Below, piece after piece: positions 16,392-62,899 of a DNA stretch of 64,000 bases. The position numbers were made by a program, and so were the translations under genes. The notes beneath the pieces were generated by a model. It ran no database searches, was not told the DNA's origin, and worked only from the letters and a program-made list of their open reading frames with translations. Numbering within the stretch: the stretch's first letter is position 1; every line of letters starts with the position of its first letter. The DNA comes from Actinomycetes bacterium (GTDB lineage Bacteria > Actinomycetota > Acidimicrobiia > Acidimicrobiales > Bog-793). Location: contig JAKBPI010000001.1 in assembly GCA_021829645.1 (NCBI GenBank), forward strand, positions 136,796-200,795, read 5' to 3'.

Positions 16392-17432
16392 ATGGTTCAA
16401 AACGAGCTGAAGCTGCAAAACTCAAGTACCCATAACACAGAAATTGTGGGTGACTCAATTTTGCCGTTAAAGCTTGGTGACCACAATCTGGCCGTCAAAG
16501 ACCTCCAAAGACGTCTAAATGCACTCGGCATGGAAACCGATGATACCTACGGATATTTTGGTTTATCCACACAAAAGGCCGTATCGGAATTTCAAGCCGT
16601 CAGAGGTTTGATAGCCACCGGAGAATGCAGTCGACAAACTTGGGATACTTTGGTTGAATCAGGCTGGAAGTTAGGCGATCGTATGTTGTACCGCCGCACT
16701 CCTATGTTTAAAGGAGATGACGTAGCTCAACTGCAACGAAACTTGAGCGCTTACGGCTTTGACCCGGGTAGAATCGACGGCATTTTTGGCAATGACACAG
16801 ACTTTGCACTGCGTGATTTTCAACGCAACTGCGGACTGTTGGTAGATGGTATCTGCGGTCAACGAACCATCCACGAATTGAACAGATTGCGTCCCGCTAA
16901 CGGTGGTACGGCTTTGGTCTCACCTCTGCGCGAGCGCTGGACGTTGATTTCAAAACGAGAAACAGGATTAGCCGGCAAAAAAATAGTTGTTTGCGAACCG
17001 GGCGGATTCGACAAAGCGACGACAGCCCTAAAAAGGTTTTTTGGAAGAAGCGGTGCGAATGTTTTTGTCCTTCCCAATATCAATCCTTCCACTACCGCAG
17101 CAGAAGCCAACCAGTTGGCCGCAGAACTTGTTATTTCGCTCAATTTAGAGCCCGCAACACAAGAGTGCTCTATCCATTACTATAAAGGTTACCGTTACGA
17201 ATCAGAAGCAAGCAGACAGTTGGCTGAGCTTATTGAGGCAGAATTGTCGGCTTCTTTTAATTTTGAAGCAACCTCCGTAATTGGCATGGCGACACCTATC
17301 TTAAGAGAAACAAGAATGCCGGCGGTTGAACTTTATCTAGGCAACGTCAAAGAAGTAGTAAAGCAAATTACCTCTTTGGCCTCTACAATAATCACGGCCA
17401 CGACACAGTGGATAGAACACGACTGGGAATAA
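16392..17432 (+). CDS. cwlM: CwlM-like protein: two peptidoglycan-binding domains plus a degenerate Amidase_3 domain
   Basis: Two PG_binding_1 repeats (GDHNLAVKDLQRRLNALG...YFGLSTQKAVSEFQ and GDDVAQLQRNLSAYGF...IFGNDTDFALRDFQ). In the C-terminal amidase-like domain the expected DPGHGG and S-I-H-x-N read EPGGFD and ISLNLE. It follows trxA, as cwlM does in mycobacteria. Confidence 0.75.
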   Translation: MVQNELKLQNSSTHNTEIVGDSILPLKLGDHNLAVKDLQRRLNALGMETDDTYGYFGLSTQKAVSEFQAVRGLIATGECSRQTWDTLVESGWKLGDRMLYRRTPMFKGDDVAQLQRNLSAYGFDPGRIDGIFGNDTDFALRDFQRNCGLLVDGICGQRTIHELNRLRPANGGTALVSPLRERWTLISKRETGLAGKKIVVCEPGGFDKATTALKRFFGRSGANVFVLPNINPSTTAAEANQLAAELVISLNLEPATQECSIHYYKGYRYESEASRQLAELIEAELSASFNFEATSVIGMATPILRETRMPAVELYLGNVKEVVKQITSLASTIITATTQWIEHDWE

Positions 17433-17527
17433 AAACTTCTTTGCGGCCTCGTTAAACCTGGTAAACGCGAGGAAAACCTATTTCTCAGGTTGAAACTCAA
17501 CACTAAAGCTATTCTTGATGTAATCAT

Positions 17528-17560
17528 AAATCCACAAGGTTGTCCACAACTTGTGGATAA
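17528..17560. promoter_or_regulatory. Cluster of three DnaA boxes outside oriC
   Basis: AAATCCACA (17528-36, 7/9), TTGTCCACA (17540-48, perfect actinobacterial consensus) and TGTGGATAA (17552-60, the reverse complement of TTATCCACA, perfect). They lie in the gap between convergent cwlM and parB. Confidence 0.6.
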
Positions 17561-17695
17561 CCTTCAAGTTATGGTTTATATACATTGTGTTCACCTAAAG
17601 TAGGCAATTTGAATAAGTTTTGAAATATTCTTCTAGGTGGTAGCTGATATTTGACATTAAAGTGTATCAACGTCAAGTTGAGATTGAGTAACGCC

Positions 17696-18664
17696 CTACG
17701 AACGCCCCACCATTGCTTTATAAATACGCTCCAAGTCTTCAAGAGTAGCAAAATCAATAACAATTTTGCCGTGCTTGGAGCCCATTTCAACTTTTACTCT
17801 GGTGTCGAGATGTTCACTCAATAAGTCTTCTAACTCTAAAAATCCCGGGGGCCTTAATTGTTTAGAGGTAACGTTCCCCAAACGTTGGGCTTCTGTATTA
17901 AAAGGATTCGTGACAGCAGTATTTTCTAAATCTGCTCTGTTTTGAATTAGAGCTTGGCTGCCAGCCGCACCGGGTAATTCGGATTCATCTGCTGTGGTGG
18001 TCAGGCGTCTGACTGCCTCTTCCAAACTACGTACTGACAGTTTTAATTCCACCGCTTCTTTAGCTAAACGCTCTTGTATTTGACGATCCGGTGTTGCCAG
18101 TAAGACTTTAGCATGCCCACTAGTCAACGAACCCTCTTGCAGCATAACCTGAATAATTGGAGGAAGTTGTAATAGTCGCAGTATATTAGAAACAGCGGCT
18201 CTGCTTTTACCCACCCTGATAGCCAATTCCTCATGCGTTAAGCCAAATTCTTCTATGAGTTGTCTATAAGCTGAGCCTTCTTCTATGGGGTTTAAGTCAC
18301 TTCTGTGTAGATTTTCTACTAAAGCTTTTTCTAAGCTAAGTTTATCGTCGGCTGATTGCACCAATACCGGTATTGTCTGCAGACCGGCTCTTTTGGAAGC
18401 GCGCCAACGTCGTTCTCCGGCAATTAACTCAAAATTACCCGGCTCGGTTTCGCGAACTAAAACCGGTTGCAATAAACCCAATGCCTTAATGGAATCAGAG
18501 AGTTCCGCCAGAGATTCTTCATCAAAGCTTTTTCGAGGCTGATATGGATTTGGGTATATGGAAGTTATAGGTACTTCACGCAGTACACTTGTAGACCCCC
18601 CGGCAGTTTGATTTGGTATTAAAGCACTCAAACCGCGACCGAGACCAGTAGTCTTACTTGCCAT
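17696..18664 (-). CDS. parB: Chromosome partitioning protein ParB (Spo0J)
   Basis: 322 aa with the ParB box LIAGERRWRASKRAG and an HTH region. Its start overlaps the 3' end of parA. Confidence 0.95.
   Translation of the reverse strand: MASKTTGLGRGLSALIPNQTAGGSTSVLREVPITSIYPNPYQPRKSFDEESLAELSDSIKALGLLQPVLVRETEPGNFELIAGERRWRASKRAGLQTIPVLVQSADDKLSLEKALVENLHRSDLNPIEEGSAYRQLIEEFGLTHEELAIRVGKSRAAVSNILRLLQLPPIIQVMLQEGSLTSGHAKVLLATPDRQIQERLAKEAVELKLSVRSLEEAVRRLTTTADESELPGAAGSQALIQNRADLENTAVTNPFNTEAQRLGNVTSKQLRPPGFLELEDLLSEHLDTRVKVEMGSKHGKIVIDFATLEDLERIYKAMVGRS
17711..18150. repeat. Left arm of an inverted repeat (the 3' half of parB); its partner is 19782-20200
   Basis: The reverse complement aligns by eye with 19782-20200. 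I count 6 substitutions plus four indels of 1, 6, 8 and 6 bp. Confidence 0.9.
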
Positions 18665-19451
18665 TATGCAGTATCTCCTTAGCTAATTCTCTGTATGCTA
18701 TAGCACCCCTTGAAGATGGGTCGTGTAGTGTTACAGGTTGTCCAAAAGAAGGTGCTTCAGAAACACGAACGGAGCGGGGTATAACGGTGTCGCAAACTTT
18801 TGTACTAATAGATTGTTCAAAATGACTTTTAACGTCTTTAACAACTTGATCTGCTAATTTTGTCCTGGCGTCATACATAGTCAAGACGATGGTGCTGACC
18901 ACTAAAGTCGGATTAAGACTTGTCCTGACTAACTCCACATTATTGAGTAATTGGCTTAGACCTTCCAATGCATAATATTCGCACTGTATAGGTACGAGAA
19001 CTTCGGTAGCTGCCGTCAAAGCGTTGACTGTCAATAATCCCAACGAAGGCGGGCAGTCAATAAAAATAAAATCAAAATCTTCGCTTAGTTGCTCAATGGC
19101 TCTCTTTAGGCGCATTTCCCGACTAAAAGAAGTAACCAGCTCAATTTCTGCTCCTGCTAAGCTCAAGGTAGCGGGGGTCAGAAATAAATTCTTTATGCTA
19201 GTAGGCTCAATTGAATCTTCTATATCTACATTGTGGAGTAATACGTCGTAAATTGAATTGTCAAAGTTTCGAGCGTGCACCCCCAAGCCAGAACTTGCAT
19301 TACCTTGCGGATCTAAGTCAATTACCAGAACTTTATTGCCTAAATCAGCAAGAGACGCTCCTAAGTTGACTGTAGTAGTAGTTTTTCCAACGCCGCCTTT
19401 TTGGTTGGCTATAGCAAACGTCCGACATTGCTGGTCTTGTATATGTGCCAC
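18654..19451 (-). CDS. parA: Chromosome partitioning ATPase ParA (Soj)
   Basis: Deviant Walker A NQKGGVGKTTTT, DLDPQGN and IFIDCPPSLG motifs. Confidence 0.95.
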   Translation of the reverse strand: MAHIQDQQCRTFAIANQKGGVGKTTTTVNLGASLADLGNKVLVIDLDPQGNASSGLGVHARNFDNSIYDVLLHNVDIEDSIEPTSIKNLFLTPATLSLAGAEIELVTSFSREMRLKRAIEQLSEDFDFIFIDCPPSLGLLTVNALTAATEVLVPIQCEYYALEGLSQLLNNVELVRTSLNPTLVVSTIVLTMYDARTKLADQVVKDVKSHFEQSISTKVCDTVIPRSVRVSEAPSFGQPVTLHDPSSRGAIAYRELAKEILHNGK

Positions 19452-19558
19452 GCTTAAATACCTTTGATATTAAAAATTTCTTTGAGTAAAAATATAGCAT
19501 ACCGAGAACATTTAGCAATAGTAGCCGGTCAATAAAAGCTGCTTTTCTGCAATATAAA

Positions 19559-19574
19559 TGTTCCACGTGGAACA
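19559..19574. promoter_or_regulatory. parS site 1 (perfect 16-bp palindrome)
   Basis: TGTTCCACGTGGAACA compared with the canonical parS tGTTNCACGTGAAACa. It sits inside a larger near-perfect palindrome at 19547-19586 (CTGCAATATAAATGTTCCAC/GTGGAACACTTATATTGCAG). Confidence 0.8.
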
Positions 19575-19748
19575 CTTATATTGCAGAAGCTTATCCTATT
19601 CATTCCTTCCAATTGAAATACAGAGTAGTGACTCCTATTTTGAGATTCCCACCAAATTGGGAATTTTCTATCACCTTAAATAGGATTCCTTTTGTTATAA
19701 CAATACGCTTATTGAATCTTTTGATTCTCTTCTGTCATACCACATACT

Positions 19749-19764
19749 TGTTCCACGTGGAACA
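19749..19764. promoter_or_regulatory. parS site 2 (identical 16-bp palindrome)
   Basis: TGTTCCACGTGGAACA again, 17 bp before the start of the parB-fragment copy. Confidence 0.8.
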
Positions 19765-19781
19765 GATGGAATGTGCTCCAT

Positions 19782-20200
19782 AGGTTATGCTGCAAGAGGG
19801 TTCGTTACTAGTGGGCATGCTAAAGTCTTGCTGGCAACACCGGATCGTCAAATACAAGAGTGTTTAGCTAAAGAAGCAGTGGAATTAAAACTGTCAGTAC
19901 GTAGTTTGGAAGAGGCAGTCAGACGCCTGACCACCACAGCAGATGAATCCGAATTACCCGGTGGCAGCCAAGCTCTAATTCAAAACAGAGCAGATTTAGA
20001 AAATACTGCTGTTACGAATCCTTTTAATACAGAAGCCCAACGTTTAGGAAACGTTACCTCTAAGGCCCCCGGGATTTTTAGAAGACTTATTGAGTGAACA
20101 TCTCGACACCAGAGTAAAAGTTGAAATGGGCTCCAAGCACGGCAAAATTGTTATTGATTTTGCTACTCTTGAAGACTTGGAGCGTATTTATAAAGCAATG
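19782..20200 (+). pseudogene. Inverted, frameshifted duplicate of the 3' half of parB
   Basis: Track ORF 19771-20097 translates to ...TSGHAKVLLATPDRQIQECLAKEAVELKLSVRSLEEAVRRLTTTADESELPG..., nearly identical to ParB residues about 172-318. After an 8-bp deletion the homology continues out of frame to ...LEDLERIYKAM at 20200. Confidence 0.9.
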
Positions 20201-20303
20201 TACATCTCAAAGGTTGGTGGATTTAAAAACCGAAACTGACGTGTCAACAAGCAGCGCTTTTGAAACGGACTCAGAATAAATATATTTACCAACGGATAAC
20301 GAT

Positions 20304-20927
20304 TTAAAATATTGGTCTTTTAGTGGGAATACCGACACGCCTAGGGTATTCATCAGGGCAAAGGTTTATCATTCGCAATTTAACAAAAGTGTGTGTACTC
20401 TTAATGGATTGCTCAGGCACTAAGGATACTTTGGCACAACCGGTCTTTGGCCAGCGTATGGCAATGTCACTCTCTGGTGGCTCAGAAACTATCAAGACCC
20501 CATCTTTTTGCAAAAACGGGGCTCCGCACTCGGCCGTAATGGGAGGTTGAGCGAAACTTCTCGCCACCACTGTTGAAAAAGCACCTCTTAATAAAGAACT
20601 TCTGCCGGCGACTTCTGCTCTTTCACATATCACTTCGACGCGATGATCTAATTCTAAAGTTGTTACCGTTTTTTTGAGAAATGCACATCTTTTTACGCTT
20701 GCATCTAAAAGCGATATCCGGGCATCTGGCAGCGCTAGAGCAAGAAAAAGCCCGGGAATTCCACCCCCTGTGCCCAAATCTAAAATATCCTTTGGGGTAG
20801 GCTTGCTTTCTTCGATAATATCCAAGAAACCGGCACTATGACGCAGGTGGGCTTCAATCGGCCCAGGACCCAAAAATCCCAGTTGTTGGGATTCAGATAA
20901 AACTGAAATTAGCTTGGAACTATCCAT
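20304..20927 (-). CDS. rsmG: 16S rRNA (guanine527-N7)-methyltransferase RsmG (GidB)
   Basis: SAM motif ILDLGTGGGIPGL; 207 aa; located in the parA-rsmG-jag synteny. Confidence 0.9.
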   Translation of the reverse strand: MDSSKLISVLSESQQLGFLGPGPIEAHLRHSAGFLDIIEESKPTPKDILDLGTGGGIPGLFLALALPDARISLLDASVKRCAFLKKTVTTLELDHRVEVICERAEVAGRSSLLRGAFSTVVARSFAQPPITAECGAPFLQKDGVLIVSEPPESDIAIRWPKTGCAKVSLVPEQSIKSTHTFVKLRMINLCPDEYPRRVGIPTKRPIF

Positions 20928-20941
20928 GTTCCGAAAAGTTG

Positions 20942-21967
20942 TTATTTGGAAAACACCTCTGAATCAACAGCATCTGTTGCTTTGTATACAACAACACGGC
21001 GTCTTGGTTCAAATCCTTCTGACCTTGTTTTGAGTCCCTCTATAGAGGAAATTGTGTCATGGACCACTTTCCTATCAGGTGAGTTCATGGGCTCTAATTT
21101 TTTGGTTACCCCTGTCTCGATAACCTCTTGACCTATTTTTTGTACAAATGTTGCCAGGGCGTTTGCTCTTTTTTGCCTGTAACGCGATACGTCAATAATT
21201 AATTTGGTTCTTTCCTCGATCCCCTCATTGCGTTGTATGATGGTCCTGGTAATTTCTTGAATAGCATCCAATGTAGAGCCTTTTGGACCCACTAAAATAC
21301 CCAATTCCGGTCCGTCTATATTTATTAGTATTTGCGGACTATTGATCGAGACTTCGACTTTCGCGTCAAAGTCAAACTTAGTCAATAATTCCTGAAGAAA
21401 ACTGGTGGCTAGTTTAGCTTTCTCTTCTATATCCATATCATTTACCTCTTTCTGAAGAGTATTGCTTGCTTCTACTACTGGTTTGGCATCTGTTTTATAC
21501 CTTTGTGGTCTACTTGTCTGAGAAGCAGTAGTAGGCTTATTCGGCTTAGCTGTTTCGTTGTTTAGTGATTCTACGGTATTTGTTTGGTTGCTTCTATACT
21601 TCTTTTGTCTATTAAACTGAGTGCTTTTGTCTTTTGCTGTTTCACCTGTTGGGTTATTTGCAGAATTAGCACTTTTTTGTTGATTGGCAAGTGTTTGATT
21701 ACCTGATTGTGATGCTGTGTTTTTATAAGGTCTTCTTTCGTCTCTATTGGCGTAAGAGTTCCTTTTTTTATACTGCTTCTTCTGGGGAAGGGATTGCGGT
21801 TTGATACGCACTCTCACTCTGGCTTGCTTTGATGCAATACCAAAAATACCCTTTTTTGCAGAAGATACTATAACAACTTCGGCATCTCTATACTCTATAC
21901 CAAGCGCTTCCAGCGCTTCCTGTATAGCTAATTCATCAGTTACACCGGTAGTCTCTACCCATTCCAC
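20942..21967 (-). CDS. jag: Jag/KhpB RNA-binding protein (Jag_N, KH, R3H) with a long disordered insert
   Basis: N-terminal Jag_N (GVTDELAIQEALEALG), C-terminal KH (GILVGPKGSTLDAIQ) and R3H (MNSPDRKVVHDTI). A linker of about 120 aa rich in K/Q/N/S/T lies between them. Confidence 0.8.
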   Translation of the reverse strand: MEWVETTGVTDELAIQEALEALGIEYRDAEVVIVSSAKKGIFGIASKQARVRVRIKPQSLPQKKQYKKRNSYANRDERRPYKNTASQSGNQTLANQQKSANSANNPTGETAKDKSTQFNRQKKYRSNQTNTVESLNNETAKPNKPTTASQTSRPQRYKTDAKPVVEASNTLQKEVNDMDIEEKAKLATSFLQELLTKFDFDAKVEVSINSPQILINIDGPELGILVGPKGSTLDAIQEITRTIIQRNEGIEERTKLIIDVSRYRQKRANALATFVQKIGQEVIETGVTKKLEPMNSPDRKVVHDTISSIEGLKTRSEGFEPRRRVVVYKATDAVDSEVFSK

Positions 21968-32903: not shown

Positions 32904-35900
32904 TTAGTGACTATATCTTTTTAATAGCTTATTTGCTTCCGTAGTACGACCCACTTGTTGGTAGGAAAAAGCCAGATTGTCTCGCGCAGTCAATGTATTA
33001 GGGTGATCTTTTCCTAATATCCGCTCATAATCTGCTAAGACCTTTTCCCCTATTTCTATAGCTTTATCAATACGACCCACTTGTTGGTAGGAAGAAGCGA
33101 GGTTGCTTCGCGTAATCAAAGTATAAGGATACTCCGGACCCAATAGCCGCTCACAATCTACTAAGACTTTTTCCTCGATTTCTATAGCTTCATGAGTACG
33201 ACCCACTTGTTGGTAGGAAGAAGCCAGATTGCCTCGCGCAGTCAATGTATTAGGGTGATCTTTTCCTAATATCCGCTCACAATCTACTAAGACTTTTTCC
33301 TCGATTTCTATAGCTTCATGAGTACGACCCAGTTGTTGGTAGGAAGAAGCGAGGTTGCTTCGCACAGTCAATGTATTAGGGTGATCTTTTCCTAATATCC
33401 GCTCACAATCTACTAAGACTTTTTCCTCGATTTCTATAGCTTCATGAGTACGACCCAGTTGTTGGTAGGAAGAAGCCAGGTTGCTTCGCACAGTCAATGT
33501 ATTAGGGTGATCTTTTCCTAATATCCGCTCACAATCTGCCAAGACCTTTTCCTGGATTTCTATCGCTTCCGTAGTACGACCTGCTTGTTGGTAGGAAGAA
33601 GCCAGATTGCCTCGCGCAGTCAATGTATCAGGGTGATCCGGACCTAATATCCGCTCACGATCTGCCAAGACCTTTTCCTGGATTTCTATCGCTTCATGAG
33701 TACGACCCACTTGTTGGTAGGAAGAAGCCAGATTGCTTCGCGCAGTCAATGTATTAGGGTGATCCGGACCTAATATCCGCTCACGATCTGCCAAGACCTT
33801 TTCCTGGATTTCTATCGCTTCATGAGTACGACCCACTTGTTGGTAGGAAGAAGCCAGATTGCTTCGCACAGTCAATGTATTAGGGTGATCTTTTCCTAAT
33901 ATCCGCTCACAATCTGTCAAGATTTTTTTACTGATTTCTATAGCTTCATGAGTACGACCCACTTGTTGGTAAGAAAAAGCCAGGTTGCCTCGCACAGTCA
34001 ATGTATCAGGGTGATCCGGACCTAATATTCGCTCACAATCTGTCAAGATTTTTTTACTGATTTCTATAGCTTCATGAGTACGACCCACTTGTTGGTAAGA
34101 AAAAGCCAGGTGATTTAACGCAACAAGGGTGTCGTAATGCTTTTCCTCAGGAAGGCTTTTTAGTGTAGCGACAGCACTTTCCCAAATAATTGGGATTTTA
34201 GTCAGTTGTCCCGTTCGAACAGCTACCGCAGATTTAGCATGAGTAAAGGTTAAATATAGTTCGGGTGGAACCTTATTACTAATAGTTTCGAGTAGAGGTT
34301 GTGCTATTTCAGGGGCACCAACACGTATCAATTCTGATGCTACTCGGATAACACGTTCGGGAAGAAGAGGGTTGTTGTCTTTGGTTATCGCCTCGGTGGT
34401 GATAGATAGCAACAGATCTAGTGACATAGATGGTTTCTTTAGGTCAGCTGTTAAGATTGCAACTAGCAAAAAAGAAGCTCTATCAGTATCCGCGACATTA
34501 ACCAATAGGCTGTCGGCTCGCTCAGCCCAACTAGTTCTGTCATTTATGGCAGCCAACATAAACAATTCAAATCGTATATCAGCAATAGATAATGTCTGTA
34601 GTTTGTGTTCTATAAGACGGCTAATTGCTGAGGGTTGTTTTAATAAAGAAAGTGGATTTCCTGTGTCAAGAGCTGCACACGCATCGTCAAGTTCTTTTAG
34701 TTTTGTGAGTAATGCCGGATTAGCTGACTCTTGATGCCGAGGTGCAAACATTCCGGTCGTTGGATCGATAAAAGGTGAGGCGACTAACGCTCCGGTAAGG
34801 CTAAAAGTAGAGTCTTTGACTAGGTGTAGTGCTTGCTGGAGGTAATTCGCAACTATAGGTTGACTTGAGTTGATTTTGGAAAGTTCATCTTGTTCAAACC
34901 AAGAGAGAAGAAAATCAAGCACCAATTGGATGGGCTTACCTCTCGAGTCTTTGAGTTGGAAAGCAAGACGTGCTAAAGGTTCTGCTAATTCATAAAAACT
35001 CAAACGACGATCAGCGCGATCAACCAGTAAACCTGTACGAAGTTGAACCCAACCACGATTTTTTAGATCACTCATTGTTTTAGCTAGGCTTTTTTGTTCA
35101 ACTCCAATTGTTGTGGCCAGTTCGTTTACTGTTATAGCTCGATCGGCATCCGCCAGAGTTCTTACGACAAGTCGTTCTTGTGGCGATAGTCGTAATAATT
35201 GTTCTTGGTAGAAAGGAGTTAGATCATCAAATCTTTCTATGAGAACTTTAGTCAATTCGTCCAGATCGGAAGTCTTAAGACCGGTGGCAAAAAGTGCCCA
35301 CATACGCGGTTGTCCACCGGCGAGATGTTCTATAGCAGTGAGGCGTGCTTGTGATGTGGGATCGTTGAGCCGGTTTTCTAAAGGAAGGTCTCTTTCAAAT
35401 TTTGCTATAGCTTTTAACATTTCTATCGCCTGGGAAGCGGTGAATGGAGGAAGTTGGGTTGTATCAAAAAATCCATAAAATGTATCTGTTTGGTTTAATA
35501 GGTAGTCAGTAAGGCGAGTAGCCGTGGCAATCACGAGAAACGGTCGTTTGTTTTCGAGAAACGCCCGCAAACGGCGTTGCCCTGCTGTCTGCAGATTATC
35601 AAGGATCCAGTCAAGGTTTTCTGTGAGTAGCACAATCGGACCATATGTATCAACTTCATTCATGACAGCTGTTTCCAATTCCTCGTCTGTCATGTGTCGG
35701 TCTAATTTACCTTGGTAATTATCAGCGATTGGTGTCTCAATGTGTTCAAGGACACAACGCAGTAGATCACTATAAGAATTGATGGTCCAAGGGTCTTCTG
35801 GCAGCCAACTGATGCTGAAAGGCAAGCCGTCTTTTTGAAGGTGACGCAGTTTATGATACGCAAGACTGATTAGATGCGTCTTACCCGCACCACGAGGACC

Positions 35901-36047
35901 TACTAATAGCCTATGTGAGCGTTCATTTGTTTGAGTAGCACGTTTAGTACGAGCTATGATGTCTTCCAATAGGTCATGACGGTGAACAAACAGAGCGTTG
36001 AGGGTGTCTTCGTCAAGCAAACTTGGTGTAAATCGTGCCAGTGTCAT
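32904..36047 (-). CDS. STAND-like P-loop NTPase with winged helix and ten C-terminal TPR units
   Basis: Walker A LLVGPRGAGKTHL, Walker B-like IVLLTENLD and a MarR-like wHTH (SPQERLVVRTLADADRAITVNELATTIG). A helical region of about 250 aa is followed by 10 x 42-aa TPR units (consensus HPNTLTxRSNLASSYQQVGRTHEAIEIxEKVLxDCERILGKD). ATG 36047 forms an ATGA overlap with the upstream stop; the track start at 36095 is probably an over-extension. Confidence 0.75.
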   Translation of the reverse strand: MTLARFTPSLLDEDTLNALFVHRHDLLEDIIARTKRATQTNERSHRLLVGPRGAGKTHLISLAYHKLRHLQKDGLPFSISWLPEDPWTINSYSDLLRCVLEHIETPIADNYQGKLDRHMTDEELETAVMNEVDTYGPIVLLTENLDWILDNLQTAGQRRLRAFLENKRPFLVIATATRLTDYLLNQTDTFYGFFDTTQLPPFTASQAIEMLKAIAKFERDLPLENRLNDPTSQARLTAIEHLAGGQPRMWALFATGLKTSDLDELTKVLIERFDDLTPFYQEQLLRLSPQERLVVRTLADADRAITVNELATTIGVEQKSLAKTMSDLKNRGWVQLRTGLLVDRADRRLSFYELAEPLARLAFQLKDSRGKPIQLVLDFLLSWFEQDELSKINSSQPIVANYLQQALHLVKDSTFSLTGALVASPFIDPTTGMFAPRHQESANPALLTKLKELDDACAALDTGNPLSLLKQPSAISRLIEHKLQTLSIADIRFELFMLAAINDRTSWAERADSLLVNVADTDRASFLLVAILTADLKKPSMSLDLLLSITTEAITKDNNPLLPERVIRVASELIRVGAPEIAQPLLETISNKVPPELYLTFTHAKSAVAVRTGQLTKIPIIWESAVATLKSLPEEKHYDTLVALNHLAFSYQQVGRTHEAIEISKKILTDCERILGPDHPDTLTVRGNLAFSYQQVGRTHEAIEISKKILTDCERILGKDHPNTLTVRSNLASSYQQVGRTHEAIEIQEKVLADRERILGPDHPNTLTARSNLASSYQQVGRTHEAIEIQEKVLADRERILGPDHPDTLTARGNLASSYQQAGRTTEAIEIQEKVLADCERILGKDHPNTLTVRSNLASSYQQLGRTHEAIEIEEKVLVDCERILGKDHPNTLTVRSNLASSYQQLGRTHEAIEIEEKVLVDCERILGKDHPNTLTARGNLASSYQQVGRTHEAIEIEEKVLVDCERLLGPEYPYTLITRSNLASSYQQVGRIDKAIEIGEKVLADYERILGKDHPNTLTARDNLAFSYQQVGRTTEANKLLKRYSH
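32907..34139. repeat. Tandem array of about ten 126-bp units, in frame, encoding the TPR units
   Basis: The anchor GTACGACCCACTTGTTGGTAGGAAGAAGCCAG recurs every 126 bp, near 32944, 33070, 33196, 33322, 33448, 33574, 33700, 33826, 33952 and 34078. Some neighbouring units encode identical 42-aa peptides. Confidence 0.9.
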
Positions 36048-37309
36048 GATGCCCGCCTTATTTCCCAAATCCGTGCCAGCGACCGGTATTTCCAACTGAT
36101 ATCACCATCAGGGGTTCGCTTTAGGTAGTGGTCGCGGATTAACAAATCAACAATTCTCTTCAAGTTTTTTTCTGGTTGTCCATTAGTGCAGCTCAGGGCT
36201 TCTTGTAATGTAGGTCTTTTGTTAGGTCCATGTTGAGCTAGTTCGTCAAGTATACTCCCGGCAAGCAGACAATCATCGGGGTTATAGTATCGATCAAGCC
36301 TTGTTAAGAGGGAGGTGCTTTGGTGAGAAACATCTAAGTCGGCAGCAGCCCGATCAAACAAAGAGGCCACATTGTTACCGCCAAGCGTTTCTTTTTGATC
36401 TCTTGCGTATGCAACTACTAAATGTTCCAGATAGGGAATTCCATCTGTGATTCTAACTATTTCTGTTGATGTATCAGGGTCGTATTTAACGTCATTTCCA
36501 CGTAGCAGACAATCAGCCAGGTATTTAGCCCAAGATGCTTCAAGAGCCCCTAGTTCGTAATAAATCAGATCATTGGTGAGATCATCGCCTGCTCCTATTT
36601 GAGACATAACATGATGCATACCTACCGAGCCGGTAAGTATCCAACAAAGTGAAGGGTTATTTTCACGAAGTCTTCGCAAGATTGCCAGAGTTTTTCTTGC
36701 CTCATCCGGTCCTTCTTTATCCTTAATACTCAAAAGCATGTCAGGAACTTCATCGCATGCCAGTAGCAGAAAGCGCTTTTCTTCATTCAGTACTTTTGAT
36801 ATCTCTATGAGTGCGGTCTCCAGTGTTGCCAATGGGTCGTACTTATAAGCTTGTTTGAGGGCAATTTTTACAGGTCCTGCGGATACCTCAAACCCAGTGA
36901 ACAGTTTTTTTAGATTATTTATTACACGTTTTGACAGTGTTTGAAAGGTATATAGATCTTTGATGATTGTTTCACATAATTTGGTGGTGGTGTCCACACC
37001 CTGTAAACTAATTTTTATACATTTAGACTCCCGATTTGTTTCGGCAGCCATTTTACTCAGCACACTTGACTTTCCCAATCTTCGGATGTCGGTGAGTAAA
37101 ATTGAAGATGATTCACTAGCTTTCCATAATTTTTTGATTAACTCATCACGCCCTATCACAAAACCTACATTTGATTGCCCTCCAGGGACTGCCGGTATTC
37201 TTATTGGCTCGGGTAGTTCTTTAATCACAGCCGCTCCTTTTATCTGGTTTCTTAGAATACAGAAACTCTCACGTATAATAATACGGGAAATTTCCCGTAC
37301 TGTCAACAC
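36044..37309 (-). CDS. ATPase of the PF01637/ORC-Cdc6-like (DEXX-box 'archaeal ATPase') type with a C-terminal winged-helix-like tail
   Basis: FVIGRDELIKKL...DIRRLGKSSVL (family-typical Walker A), Walker B FLLLACDEVPD, ILTGSVGMHHVM, and the C-terminal IVDLLIRDHYLKRTPDGDISWKY. Its stop overlaps the ATG of the TPR NTPase (ATGA). The family call rests on motif resemblance only. Confidence 0.6.
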   Translation of the reverse strand: MLTVREISRIIIRESFCILRNQIKGAAVIKELPEPIRIPAVPGGQSNVGFVIGRDELIKKLWKASESSSILLTDIRRLGKSSVLSKMAAETNRESKCIKISLQGVDTTTKLCETIIKDLYTFQTLSKRVINNLKKLFTGFEVSAGPVKIALKQAYKYDPLATLETALIEISKVLNEEKRFLLLACDEVPDMLLSIKDKEGPDEARKTLAILRRLRENNPSLCWILTGSVGMHHVMSQIGAGDDLTNDLIYYELGALEASWAKYLADCLLRGNDVKYDPDTSTEIVRITDGIPYLEHLVVAYARDQKETLGGNNVASLFDRAAADLDVSHQSTSLLTRLDRYYNPDDCLLAGSILDELAQHGPNKRPTLQEALSCTNGQPEKNLKRIVDLLIRDHYLKRTPDGDISWKYRSLARIWEIRRAS

Positions 37310-49971: not shown

Positions 49972-50168
49972 TTTTTATGTCTTCTTACTAAAACGGCCGT
50001 TTGTAATGCACAGAATGTGAATATTGACACGGATGACATTTTGATTACAACATACCCGTATCGGCAATAATCATCCCGCCCGCTATTGACGACCTATTTT
50101 TTCTGGGGTAGAAGTTTATTGCTTTGGAAACGCCAAGGCTTTACCATCATTCCAATAGGGGAGGCAAT

Positions 50169-51551
50169 ATGATAGGTGTGAAAATAAAGCAGGTTTTGCA
50201 AATTGCAAAAAAGCATATCTTGGTAAGTACCCTCTTTGTATCAGGTATGACGGCAGTAGCGGGAGGTGTTGCGGCGGCCAATGTAGGTTCTGTGGCACCC
50301 GCATCTTCTGTCACCTCGATCAAGTCTTCATATCACCGGTATAAACCGGGTCGTCGAATCGGACAAAGAACAGGCTTTGGCAATTCTATGGGCGGATGTA
50401 CGTATGAAAACCATCTCATTTCTTGCACCACGGGGAGAGGGCGTAAAAATTGGCCCTTTAACCCGGGGCATCCCAATATGCCAGTCTCACCCACTCCTAC
50501 AACCTGCCAAGTGGCTTCTTCCGGCGACACAGTGCCGACGGGTCCTGTTACCGTATCTGTAAAAATGACACAGTATGGACCGGTTTTGGTAGTAGGAAGC
50601 GGATCCAGTGTCAATTGTGCTCTGTATATGCTGACAGCAGACAACACTGCTGCTTTACCGGCAACTTACGGTTGTACTGATTCCCCGGTGGTGCCAAACT
50701 TAGGTTCTTGTGCCCAAAACATTTGGCCAGCCTTGCTTTCCGGCGGCACACCCATAGCCGGAAGAGGAGTAAACCCCCATCTGCTCGGAGTCGTCAAAAG
50801 AACGGATGTGATCAGCGGACAAACGGTTGATCAGGTAACTTATAATGGTCATCCCCTCTATCAGTTCTTCCTCGACAAGACTTCTAATGAACTGAACGGT
50901 GCCGGTCTGAATGACGGTTTGGCCGGAGGTATTTGGTATCTGATGTCTCCAAGGGGTATACCGGCTTCAGGGCATGCCACTTTGACGCTTGAGGGGACCA
51001 CAAACGACGGTGTGGTGTTGTCTGCTTTGATGAACACCGGATCTGGTTACAAAGAATATCCGGTCTACACATTCAGCGGAGATACAAACAATAAAGTTGC
51101 TTGCACAGGAAAATGCGCTCAAATTTGGCCTCCTGTTTTGACTTCGGAATTTCCGATAGCCACAAATGGCGTGGATCAAAGATCCTTGGGTGTTATTAGG
51201 GACGCCGGCGGCAGTCTGCAAGTAACTTACGACGGCCATCCGCTGTATCTCTTCATCAAAGACGCAGGCGCCAGTGCTGCGGGCGAAGCTACAGGTAACG
51301 GCTTGGGGTCTTTGTTTGGCGGTACATTTGAGACAGTCAACCCTGCTGCTCCTATGACATCCACCACCACCACGATGGCACCTACCACCACGATGGCACC
51401 CACTACCACGATGGCGCCTACCACCACCACTATGACGTCCACGACTACGATGGCGCCTACCACCACCACGATGGCACCCACTACCACGATGGCGCCTACC
51501 ACCACCACGGCGGCGCCTACCACCACCACGGCATCAAATATATATGGGTAG
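50169..51551 (+). CDS. Secreted protein with two Lipoprotein_15-type repeats (Y-x-[FWY]-x-x-D) and a Thr/Pro-rich tail
   Basis: ATG 50169 follows GGGGAGG, whereas the track start is 50124. It has a signal/TM segment. TYNGHPLYQFFLDK and TYDGHPLYLFIKD match the COG4315/PF03640 repeat. The C-terminus is (T)TTTMAP repeated. Confidence 0.65.
   Translation: MIGVKIKQVLQIAKKHILVSTLFVSGMTAVAGGVAAANVGSVAPASSVTSIKSSYHRYKPGRRIGQRTGFGNSMGGCTYENHLISCTTGRGRKNWPFNPGHPNMPVSPTPTTCQVASSGDTVPTGPVTVSVKMTQYGPVLVVGSGSSVNCALYMLTADNTAALPATYGCTDSPVVPNLGSCAQNIWPALLSGGTPIAGRGVNPHLLGVVKRTDVISGQTVDQVTYNGHPLYQFFLDKTSNELNGAGLNDGLAGGIWYLMSPRGIPASGHATLTLEGTTNDGVVLSALMNTGSGYKEYPVYTFSGDTNNKVACTGKCAQIWPPVLTSEFPIATNGVDQRSLGVIRDAGGSLQVTYDGHPLYLFIKDAGASAAGEATGNGLGSLFGGTFETVNPAAPMTSTTTTMAPTTTMAPTTTMAPTTTTMTSTTTMAPTTTTMAPTTTMAPTTTTAAPTTTTASNIYG
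51353..51532. repeat. Coding tandem repeat (18-21 bp period) encoding TTTMAP/TTTTMAP units
   Basis: ACCACCACGATGGCACCT-type units recur about 9 times. The antisense ORF 51227-51529 (VVVG repeats) is its shadow. Confidence 0.85.
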
Positions 51552-60580: not shown

Positions 60581-62899
60581 GTGTTGTGGTTTCAGCCTTC
60601 TAGCTTCAGTACTTTATCCAAAAAGTCGAAATCTATAAATAAAACTTTGCGATTAGCGGGCTTTGTATTCATTCTGCTTTCTGCTTTTGCGCCCTCTGCT
60701 TTTGCCTCCGGTAGTCACAAGACTCAAGCATCAGTTAGAATACAGCCCTATTCTTTGACAACTGCACAGTCAAGGATGCTGATAGTCGGGCCTATTTATC
60801 ACTCAAAGCCTCTCCCGAGTACACTCGGTTCCGGTCATCAATTGGTACCGCTGTTGATCAAGACTAACTCTAATAACTTTGTGGGCAGTACTTCTTGTTC
60901 ACCTATTCCAGCTCAGTCAAGTACTTCTCCGTTATATCGAAAGAAATCAGACAAACCACAAAGAGCTCTTCTTGTGACAGGTCACCTCTTGTCCTTACAG
61001 GCCACAACCACTACATTACCGATCAATCCGGCTTTGACGACAACCACTTCGACCGTCACTACTACAACCTCTGCCACCACCACCACTGTGACAAATGCTA
61101 CTGTGACAACCACCTCGACCACAACCACCTCGACTACCACTACGACAACTGCCCCGACTACTACTGCGGTTGTGCAGATGAGTTCTCTGACGGAAGCTAA
61201 TCTGCCTGTCATTCCCACCACAACTTCTGCCAATCTAGACACCGCAACCCCTGCTTCTTCTGGGGTTTATGACATGTTTTTGTCGAACGGGGCTATACAC
61301 AATTTGGGCGGAGCTAATTTTTATGGTTCTCCGATACACAAAAAGACCAAGTCGCCGATAGTTGCGATGACTTCCACCTCTTACGGAACGGGGTACCTGC
61401 TTACAACCGCTGTCGGTAACATTTACAATTATGGCAATGCCAACTTTTATGGTTCTCCGATACACAAAAAACTGAGAAAACCTCTCATCTCCATCAATGC
61501 GACTCCGGACGGAAAAGGCTACTGGGTCGTTGATGCTAACGGTGCTGTCTATAACTATGGCGACGCTCCGTTTTGCGGTTCGTTGGTGCATACCAAATTG
61601 TCGTCGCCGGTTGTCTCTATGGCCGTAACGCCGGACGGAAAAGGTTACTGGCTGGTAACGGGGAACGGCGATGTTTATAGTTTCGGAGATGCTTTGAACT
61701 TAAAATCCCAGGCTCCTCTCCGTTTGCCCTCTCCGGTTGTCTCGATGGCCGTAACGCCGGACGGAAAAGGTTACTGGCTGCTAACAGCCAAAGGCGATAT
61801 TTATAATACCGGCGACGCCAAGTTTTATGGCTCTCCCATTCACAAGCACTTCACAAGACCGGCGGTGTCCATAGCGACATCTCCGGACGGTAAAGGCTAT
61901 TTGGTGACGTCAGCTAAAGGGCAGGTATTCAATTACGGCGACGCCAAGTTTCACGGTTCTTTAGTACATAAAAGATTTGGTCGCAAAATTATTACTGCGG
62001 GTCTGGTTATCCAAGGGACACCACCTCCCCCGGCCCCTCCTCCCGTCAAGTCGCTTGGTCCGGCCCCTTTTGCCGGGGGATTGATCGGTAATGATATAAG
62101 CAATTTCCAGTGTTCCACGCCGGGCTCTTCTACTTTGAGCAATCAGTTACCGGCTAAATCCCCAATTACCATTATTGAAGCAGCCGGTTGGTTGGACAAC
62201 GCTGACAATCCCTGCCTGCAGGCCGAGGCTACGTGGGCTACATCGGCACAGGGTAGTTCAGGCACTCCGTATAGCCTGTATCTCTTTATGAATGCCATCG
62301 AGGATTCGTCAGGCGTTATAGCTTCGGCTGAGAGCGGACCGGGAGGCAATTGCCCCTCTTTGACAGCCGGTTCCCGCCCTTATTGTATTGCTTATAATTA
62401 CGGCTACAATGGTGCAGAACAGGCGTTTAATTATGCGGCGAGTCAAGGTGCCAAGGCAGCCGTATGGTGGTTAGATATAGAAAATGCACAATTGTCAAGC
62501 AATAACTATTCCAATTTTCCAACCAACTATTGGTCAAAGTCTCAAAAGTTGAACGATGAAACTATTCAGGGTGCAATCGATGCTTTGCGAAGCAATAACA
62601 TAACTGTGGGTATTTACAGTACCAGCGTGCAATACTCGACGATAACGGGAAATTACATTCCCTCTGCTCCCCAAATTCCGCTCTGGGTTGCCGGTGCACC
62701 TTGGACCTCCCCTCCGTATGGTGAATCAGGTTTGCCGAATACCTCGGTATTGCAAAATTGGTGTCAGGGCACGGCTACCTATCAGATGCCAAAAGTGACT
62801 TATCCGGAATTGTTTGCCGGCGGTACGCCTTGGGTTTTACAAGAGACGCCCGGAACAGAAGTATCTCCGTATAATTTGGATCCCGATTTTACCTGTTAG
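60581..62899 (+). CDS. Secreted protein: Thr-rich linker, six ~42-aa GYW repeats, a poly-Pro hinge and a C-terminal glycoside-hydrolase-like domain (GH25/Rv2525c-like, tentative)
   Basis: Signal peptide ...APSAFA-SG, then a T-rich tract (TTTTSTVTTTTSATTTT...). Six units of the type PDGKGYWVVDANGAVYNYGDAPFCGSLVH, then PPPPAPPP. The C-terminus has GNDISNFQC...AAVWWLDIEN... Confidence 0.5.
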   Translation: MLWFQPSSFSTLSKKSKSINKTLRLAGFVFILLSAFAPSAFASGSHKTQASVRIQPYSLTTAQSRMLIVGPIYHSKPLPSTLGSGHQLVPLLIKTNSNNFVGSTSCSPIPAQSSTSPLYRKKSDKPQRALLVTGHLLSLQATTTTLPINPALTTTTSTVTTTTSATTTTVTNATVTTTSTTTTSTTTTTTAPTTTAVVQMSSLTEANLPVIPTTTSANLDTATPASSGVYDMFLSNGAIHNLGGANFYGSPIHKKTKSPIVAMTSTSYGTGYLLTTAVGNIYNYGNANFYGSPIHKKLRKPLISINATPDGKGYWVVDANGAVYNYGDAPFCGSLVHTKLSSPVVSMAVTPDGKGYWLVTGNGDVYSFGDALNLKSQAPLRLPSPVVSMAVTPDGKGYWLLTAKGDIYNTGDAKFYGSPIHKHFTRPAVSIATSPDGKGYLVTSAKGQVFNYGDAKFHGSLVHKRFGRKIITAGLVIQGTPPPPAPPPVKSLGPAPFAGGLIGNDISNFQCSTPGSSTLSNQLPAKSPITIIEAAGWLDNADNPCLQAEATWATSAQGSSGTPYSLYLFMNAIEDSSGVIASAESGPGGNCPSLTAGSRPYCIAYNYGYNGAEQAFNYAASQGAKAAVWWLDIENAQLSSNNYSNFPTNYWSKSQKLNDETIQGAIDALRSNNITVGIYSTSVQYSTITGNYIPSAPQIPLWVAGAPWTSPPYGESGLPNTSVLQNWCQGTATYQMPKVTYPELFAGGTPWVLQETPGTEVSPYNLDPDFTC

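Follow-up and report, generated by a model that had tools for sequence, protein, structure and literature searches.

A partial, inverted copy of the segregation gene parB lies beside the parABS locus in the 64-kb stretch of Acidimicrobiales DNA analyzed here (contig JAKBPI010000001.1, 64,000 nucleotides, hereafter the window). The copy faces its source gene across parA and two parS sites, and its inner end is 17 bp from the second of these sites, parS2. It is probably a lineage-specific, recently formed and decaying parB pseudogene fragment that arose through one ectopic inverted insertion beside parS2. Among the options raised in an initial annotation of this DNA (a relic, an invertible switch, or an extra ParB loading or decoy sequence), the relic is the best supported, given the lesions in the copy, its range in a single species, and its lack of switch or parS features.

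The structure of the repeat was established by a repeat search across positions 16500–21500, in which bases 19782–20200 were recovered as the reverse complement of 17711–18150 in five collinear inverted blocks. These blocks pair 17711–17833 with 20078–20200 (123 nt, 100% identity), 17835–17856 with 20061–20082 (22 nt, 100%), 17862–17963 with 19962–20063 (97%), 17968–18124 with 19807–19963 (98%), and 18126–18150 with 19782–19806 (25 nt, 100%). The first arm (17711–18150, minus strand) is the source copy and spans nucleotides 515–954 of parB (codons ~172–318), i.e., the last ~146 codons of the gene except the stop and the four sense codons that precede it. The second arm (19782–20200, plus strand) is the disabled partial copy. 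Alignment with MAFFT, with which a separate parse agreed, yielded six substitutions and four gaps of 1, 6, 8, and 6 bp between the arms. Relative to intact parB, all four gaps are deletions in the second arm, located after 19806 (1 bp), at 19962 (6 bp), at 20061 (8 bp), and at 20078 (6 bp), and all six substitutions are transitions. Over aligned bases the copy is 98.6% identical to parB, and a 419-bp match at this level cannot be due to chance. The spacer between the arms (18151–19781, 1631 bp) contains the 5′ half of parB, parA, and the two parS palindromes. The arm boundaries are sharp; beyond both ends, the flanks resemble one another no more than shuffled sequence does, which rules out a duplication continuing past the arms. 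No further inverted repeat of at least 40 nt was found anywhere in the window. The coordinates, the substitution and indel counts, the ~0.42-kb arms, and the 1.63-kb spacer given in the initial annotation were all reproduced.

The resident gene is intact. parB (17696–18664, minus strand) encodes a protein of 322 amino acids that is found, exactly, on 17 contigs, and a Pfam scan placed ParB_N at residues 28–120, HTH_ParB at 123–222, and ParB_C at 275–315. On the copy, every annotation pipeline calls an open reading frame (ORF) of 108 amino acids (19771–20097, plus strand). Its ATG and first 11 residues derive from the flank and from a shifted frame. Past the 1-bp deletion, residues ~12–98 correspond in frame to ParB 181–267, with an in-frame deletion of 6 bp, until the 8-bp deletion shifts the frame and a stop follows after 10 further codons. 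The only Pfam match covers positions 56–101 of the 102-position HTH_ParB model (PF17762). The copy begins at codon ~172, and the Pfam scan detected ParB_N (PF02195) neither in the 108-residue ORF nor in a 152-residue chimera discussed below. ParB residues 123–177 are absent from the copy, and an HTH_3 match at 134–163 places the helix-turn-helix within the missing part, while the ParB_C dimerization domain (PF23552) can be read only in another frame. With ParB_N and the first half of HTH_ParB missing and ParB_C out of frame, the copy does not, as judged from its sequence, encode a functional ParB paralog.

The fragment thus has a resident parent gene, is truncated at both ends, and carries four deletions, two of which break the frame. 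In these respects it resembles bacterial pseudogene remnants, which it also resembles in being confined to one lineage, without an orthologous counterpart in sister species. It differs from such remnants in its inverted orientation, its position 1.6 kb from the source gene, and its bracketing of the parS pair and parA. The short gene of 108 codons labeled "ParB-like" or "HTH_ParB" in public records of metagenome-assembled genomes (MAGs), such as MCL5047707.1, would be this pseudogene fragment rather than a second ParB.

The arrangement was found repeatedly in contigs from independent sources (ENA, JGI, NCBI, and Logan assemblies). The exact sequences of ParA, ParB, RsmG, and the cwlM-like protein each occur on 15–17 contigs, 13–14 of which are 50 kb to 1 Mb in length, and the long contigs share the neighboring proteins, including the fragment ORF. 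By nucleotide comparison, the ENA, JGI, and NCBI contigs match the window at 99.9–100% identity throughout the locus, with the same ten differences between the arms; the fragment is identical in contigs L001, L002, L006, and L007. Every long contig (n = 13) has the canonical orientation. A more divergent strain, represented by L171 (five differences in 666 bp), retains all four deletions; therefore, the fragment predates the sampled diversity of the species. Several short Logan contigs (L003, L004, L174, L175, and L178) end ~30 nt into the arms, in line with a k = 31 graph running into a repeat, and they are uninformative on orientation. The repeat accounts for the breaks around parAB in short-read assemblies of this species. 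The initial annotation had allowed that the duplicate might turn out to be an assembly artifact or to be absent from sister strains; it is reproducible and fixed in the species, being present in every strain sampled, and is absent only from sister species.

This restriction to one species emerged from ParB-based scans of genomes and metagenomes, which gave about 160 related loci. Using tblastn with ParB and self-blastn of every locus, no second inverted parB segment was found among these loci outside the species. In particular, the relatives L010, L011, L012, L013, and L090 have no second parB-like segment, and the metagenome scan gave no intermediate relatives (best 68% identity). In the nearest species (L010 and L011), ParB is 78% identical and the parS pair is kept, and the spacer between rsmG and parA measures 333 bp, as against 809 bp here; the difference is approximately the size of the fragment. 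Likewise, L090 (ParB 68% identical) has the parS pair and lacks the fragment. The simplest history consistent with these loci would be a single insertion of ~0.42–0.48 kb on the rsmG side of parS2. The comparison with related genomes recommended in the initial annotation therefore confines the duplicate to the contigs of this species. Literature searches on inverted parB duplications and truncated parB pseudogenes returned nothing relevant.

On these grounds, we infer that a single event copied nucleotides 515–954 from the resident parB, or from an allele almost the same in sequence, into the spacer between rsmG and the parS pair, in inverted orientation and 17 bp from parS2. Ectopic templated repair or a template switch would be the likely route. 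The insertion would then have become fixed in the species, and the copy would afterwards have lost 21 bp through its four small deletions, with the frame broken by two of them. According to this model, the copy would have no dedicated role and encode no functional ParB. Its role would be passive only: with the 3′ half of parB it would form a 0.42-kb inverted repeat that could serve as a RecA-type substrate, and homologous recombination could occasionally flip the 1.63-kb parA–parS cassette, such events being rare or counter-selected. From this perspective, the locus would be a clear-cut natural case of an inverted ectopic duplication that is still young and adjoins a centromere-like site, with possible interest for the study of templated insertions at protein-bound DNA.

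Five differences are common to all fragment alleles, and each is a synonymous third-position transition, in parB codons 188, 204, 251, 262, and 263 (parB positions 18101, 18053, 17912, 17879, and 17876, opposite fragment positions 19830, 19878, 20013, 20046, and 20049, respectively). All five lie where the copy can still be read in the ParB frame. The sixth difference, R199C, is non-synonymous and is found in the window lineage only; the fragment of L171 carries another non-synonymous change, A201T, and both changes affect residues that are invariant in orthologs, which speaks for relaxed constraint on the copy. If transitions fell at random here, 37% of them would be synonymous, which gives P ~0.007 for five of five and ~0.03 for at least five of six. 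Five of the six differences have G or C in the gene and A or T in the fragment. This skew fits the usual bacterial mutation bias acting in an unconstrained copy, a direction partly backed by the outgroup. Outgroup polarization of the five synonymous differences gives a weak signal: two sites point to the fragment as the changed copy, one points to the gene, and the other two carry no information.

Three explanations of the synonymous excess are possible. First, the differences may be allelic; the donor may have been a parB allele diverged by ~1%, or the resident gene may later have been replaced by one, and strains diverge by up to 0.75% in this region. Second, the changes may have arisen in the constrained resident parB after copying. 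Third, the ORF on the fragment may have been under purifying selection for a time, an explanation against which R199C and A201T count, as non-synonymous changes at invariant residues. Taken together, the pattern points to fixed differences that either are allelic or were acquired under coding constraint. The initial annotation had also read the identical outer block of the arms as a possible sign of gene conversion. The absence of any substitution from the outer ~140 bp has P ~0.09, and the absence of all 10 differences from the outer 123 bp has P ~0.03, in tests that were both chosen after the data had been seen. Gene conversion is not statistically convincing on these values, and the identical block is not good evidence for it.

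Some observations weigh against a decaying pseudogene fragment. A freely drifting copy should not have all five of its fixed differences synonymous, and in this the fragment is unusual among drifting remnants. In addition, one contig, L170, carries a junction of the type expected from inversion of the spacer. If the cassette does flip in living cells, or if the small ORF has a function, the locus would exhibit an unusual modulation of ParABS; the present evidence favors neither.

One alternative, which is quite unlikely, is that the ORF of 108 residues is translated into a small protein derived from ParB, with ParB or DNA as its target; it might, for instance, be a modulator equipped with the linker and the latter half of the DNA-binding domain. 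In addition to the consistent calling of this ORF by annotation pipelines, the part that follows the ParB frame contains all six substitutions and an in-frame deletion of 6 bp, and the synonymous excess described above, for the five fixed differences as for five of all six, would be in keeping with a coding sequence. However, the protein would start in the middle of a domain, without the helix-turn-helix-bearing first half of HTH_ParB. Its ATG comes from the flank directly after parS2 and, as read from the sequence, is not preceded by a well-spaced Shine-Dalgarno motif. Moreover, both strain-specific changes are non-synonymous and replace residues that do not vary among orthologs, and no counterpart of the ORF exists in any relative examined.

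It is also quite unlikely that the fragment serves in regulation as cis antisense or double-stranded RNA. Under such a scheme, read-through from rsmG (20304–20927, minus strand), which is transcribed towards the fragment, would give the parA transcript a leader with ~420 nt complementary to the 3′ half of parB, and the intramolecular duplex would make the parAB mRNA a target of RNase III or block translation of parB. The complementarity follows directly from the inverted copy, and a terminator scan found no terminator-like hairpin on the minus strand between the rsmG stop codon and the fragment. Nevertheless, this reading is purely inferential, and the arrangement is not conserved outside the species. 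A search of positions 17000–21000 against Rfam gave no match at E ≤1, and the deletions would erode the duplex. Furthermore, a putative parA promoter-like site (TTGCTA, 16-nt spacer, TG, TATATT; 19491–19518, minus strand), recognized by consensus match only, lies between parS1 and the parA start and hence downstream of the fragment, so that most parAB mRNA would lack the leader. The promoter and terminator scans offer weak context only, as the region has no more such sites than expected from shuffled sequence.

Inverted repeats that bracket the 5′ part of a gene recall switches in which inversion exchanges the 3′ end of a coding sequence, such as the type I restriction hsdS loci, the R64 shufflon, and the Gin and Cin tail-fiber switches of phages Mu and P1. 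Here, too, the 3′ portion of a gene is repeated in inverted orientation nearby, and inversion would exchange the C-terminal coding part. The products were predicted by modeling a crossover in each identity block of the arms. A crossover in the outer 123 bp, the longest block, or in the adjacent 17 bp would give a ParB of 330 or 328 amino acids in which the dimerization domain is intact and the last four residues are exchanged for a 12-residue tail. Crossovers in blocks further in would give proteins of 276–278 amino acids without the C-terminal domain, and a crossover in the innermost 25 bp would give one of 199 amino acids. The statement in the initial annotation that inversion would truncate ParB therefore holds for the inner crossovers (199–278 amino acids) but not for the outer 123-bp and 17-bp blocks.

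A candidate for the inverted form came from the 90%-identity cluster of the fragment ORF, which includes a member of 152 amino acids (P0002) encoded on the 1363-bp contig L170 (ena:ERZ27237304:k141_755068). On this contig, window positions 19378–20200 are joined to 18150–17229 and then to 17612–17661. The contig starts with the 5′ end of parA, parS1, parS2, and an inner arm of the fragment type, with the 1-bp and 6-bp deletions and three single-nucleotide differences. It continues with an outer arm of the gene type, the authentic parB stop, the parB 3′ flank, and the 3′ end of the cwlM-like gene. Such a junction is what inversion would produce, and the switch from one arm type to the other lies within a 51-bp identity block. 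At the end of the contig is a second inverted join, a fold-back from 17229 to 17612–17661 via a 6-bp microhomology, AATAAG. Fold-back joins at microhomologies are typical of chimeric library molecules or of low-coverage assembly, and a shared block of 51 bp could be wrongly crossed by iterative-k assembly at low coverage. L170 may weakly hint at occasional recombination or a rearranged minority genome, or it may be an in vitro library or assembly chimera.

A recombinational switch, in which recombination between the arms flips the cassette of parA, parS, and the parB 5′ half and thereby changes the ParB C-terminus, is very unlikely. Its consequence would be heterogeneity of segregation among cells that, depending on the crossover point, have a 330-residue ParB bearing a new tail or a 276–278-residue ParB lacking the dimerization domain. 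The layout resembles known switches that swap a 3′ cassette, and L170 carries the exact junction of the inverted form together with the P0002 chimera. Yet this is a single short contig, with its second, chimera-like inverted junction, set against 13 long canonical contigs. Nine other predicted inversion products, including the reciprocal ParB proteins of 199, 276, 278, 328, and 330 amino acids, were each missing from a collection of ~15 billion proteins in exact look-ups. Unlike the known switches, the locus has no short specific crossover sites, and precomputed Pfam annotations indicate no recombinase gene, invertase and tyrosine recombinase included, among the genes called within ~10 kb on each side. 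This check covered gyrB, dciA, recF, dnaN, dnaA, rnpA, yidD, yidC, jag, rsmG, parA, parB, the cwlM-like gene, trxA, trxB, degV, murJ, a DUF6049 gene, and the gene for the CCA-adding enzyme. In addition, the alternative cassette is frameshifted by its 1-bp and 8-bp deletions, and none of the relatives has the structure. The invertible switch suggested in the initial annotation thus finds no recombinase, no second orientation in long contigs, no chimeric ParB, and a suspect L170.

Inversion would not require a dedicated enzyme. RecA can mediate inversions where long repeats, such as ribosomal RNA operons or copies of insertion sequences, lie in inverted orientation near oriC. The parB arms share hundreds of near-identical base pairs and would be a legitimate substrate, of which the L170 junction would be a product. 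The present case differs in that the segment is 1.6 kb long rather than of replichore scale or origin-symmetric, and in that recombination would pair a gene with a piece of itself instead of two copies of a multicopy element. A RecA-driven invertible cassette that lets subpopulations toggle between a normal ParB, a tail-swapped protein of 330 amino acids, and dimerization-less forms of 276–278 amino acids is highly improbable. If true, it would reverse the parAB operon relative to replication and build heterogeneity into segregation, and the flipped state would have been glimpsed for the first time in L170.

Finally, an assembly artifact through reads mis-joined or collapsed near the origin is effectively refuted, for although Logan contigs breaking within the arms show that assemblers treat them as a repeat, different pipelines independently assembled this arrangement, with its 10 differences, from many samples, and a collapsed repeat would not create differences between the arms.

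The parS sites were defined by a palindrome and mismatch scan. parS1 (19559–19574) and parS2 (19749–19764) are identical, perfect 16-bp palindromes, TGTTCCACGTGGAACA, and are the sole matches at up to three mismatches in the 64 kb. Both have the attributes of centromere-like sites: they are 16-bp palindromes related to TGTTNCACGTGAAACA, they precede parAB, and they are conserved in relatives, with L010, L011, and L090 each having two copies of this site, or of one nearly identical to it, ahead of parA. In Bacillus subtilis, parS lies inside the coding sequence of parB (spo0J), and with such a site in its DNA a copied piece of parB would have served as an additional place for ParB to load. This precedent does not extend to the present locus, as neither the fragment nor the 3′ half of parB contains a parS-like site at up to three mismatches. 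A ParB decoy or additional loading site, as proposed in the initial annotation, is ruled out for the fragment on the same grounds.

Within the clade, the parS variant TGTTCCACGT(G/A)GAACA is paired upstream of parA with a spacing of 47, 95, or 190 bp, the positions being 5015 and 5062 in L010 and L011 and 2875 and 2970 in L090. In Acidimicrobiales relatives further removed, the examined stretch contains just one canonical TGTTTCACGTGAAACA, at 4143 in L012 and at 2863 in L013.

Inside the bracketed segment, parA (18654–19451, minus strand) begins with GTG and encodes 265 amino acids with Pfam ParA, AAA_31, and CbiA annotations. The genes around the fragment are ordered trxB, trxA, cwlM-like, parB, parA, the parS pair, the fragment, rsmG (gidB), jag, yidC, yidD, rnpA, and dnaA, followed by dnaN, recF, dciA, and gyrB. 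Such a gene order is that of a classic actinobacterial origin region, and the fragment lies ~4 kb from dnaA. The cwlM-like protein has two PG_binding_1 repeats and a weak Amidase_3 match in Pfam. The public MAG GCA_023475605.1, to which MCL5047707.1 and MCL5047709.1 belong, is labeled "Firmicutes/Bacillota bacterium." The nearest ParB relatives come from MAGs labeled Actinomycetes or Acidimicrobiales, and together with the synteny of the origin region they indicate an actinobacterium; the Firmicutes label is probably wrong.

Two contigs join the locus to foreign DNA. In L002 (ena:ERZ27233564:k141_1188068), positions 1–1871 are joined at window position 20337, inside the 3′ end of rsmG. The joined DNA has a GC content of 35.6% (window 43.6%) and takes the place of the remainder of rsmG, jag, and yidC; an ORF of 592 amino acids, resembling an insertion sequence (IS) transposase by eye, abuts the last 33 bp of rsmG. 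Either an IS has inserted here in one population, or the contig is chimeric. In L008 (jgi:3300039716 Ga0438459_0095339), positions 1463–1886 are joined at window position 17302, inside the cwlM-like gene. Here, 424 bp of foreign DNA with 35% GC and a methyltransferase-like ORF with an SPPY motif replace the remainder of the cwlM-like gene, which may be another chimeric or mobile-DNA junction near parAB.

Direct repeats occur elsewhere in the window. A protein of 1063 amino acids (32904–36095, minus strand), which by eye resembles a STAND/AAA-type ATPase, contains at its C-terminus 42-residue, TPR-looking repeats encoded by at least nine tandem 126-bp units (32935–34242). A second set of 126-bp repeat units (61299–61974) lies in an ORF of 772 amino acids (60581–62899). 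Tandem repeats of 18 and 21 bp (51331–51535) at the 3′ end of the ORF at 50124–51551 would encode a tract rich in Thr, Met, Ala, and Pro.

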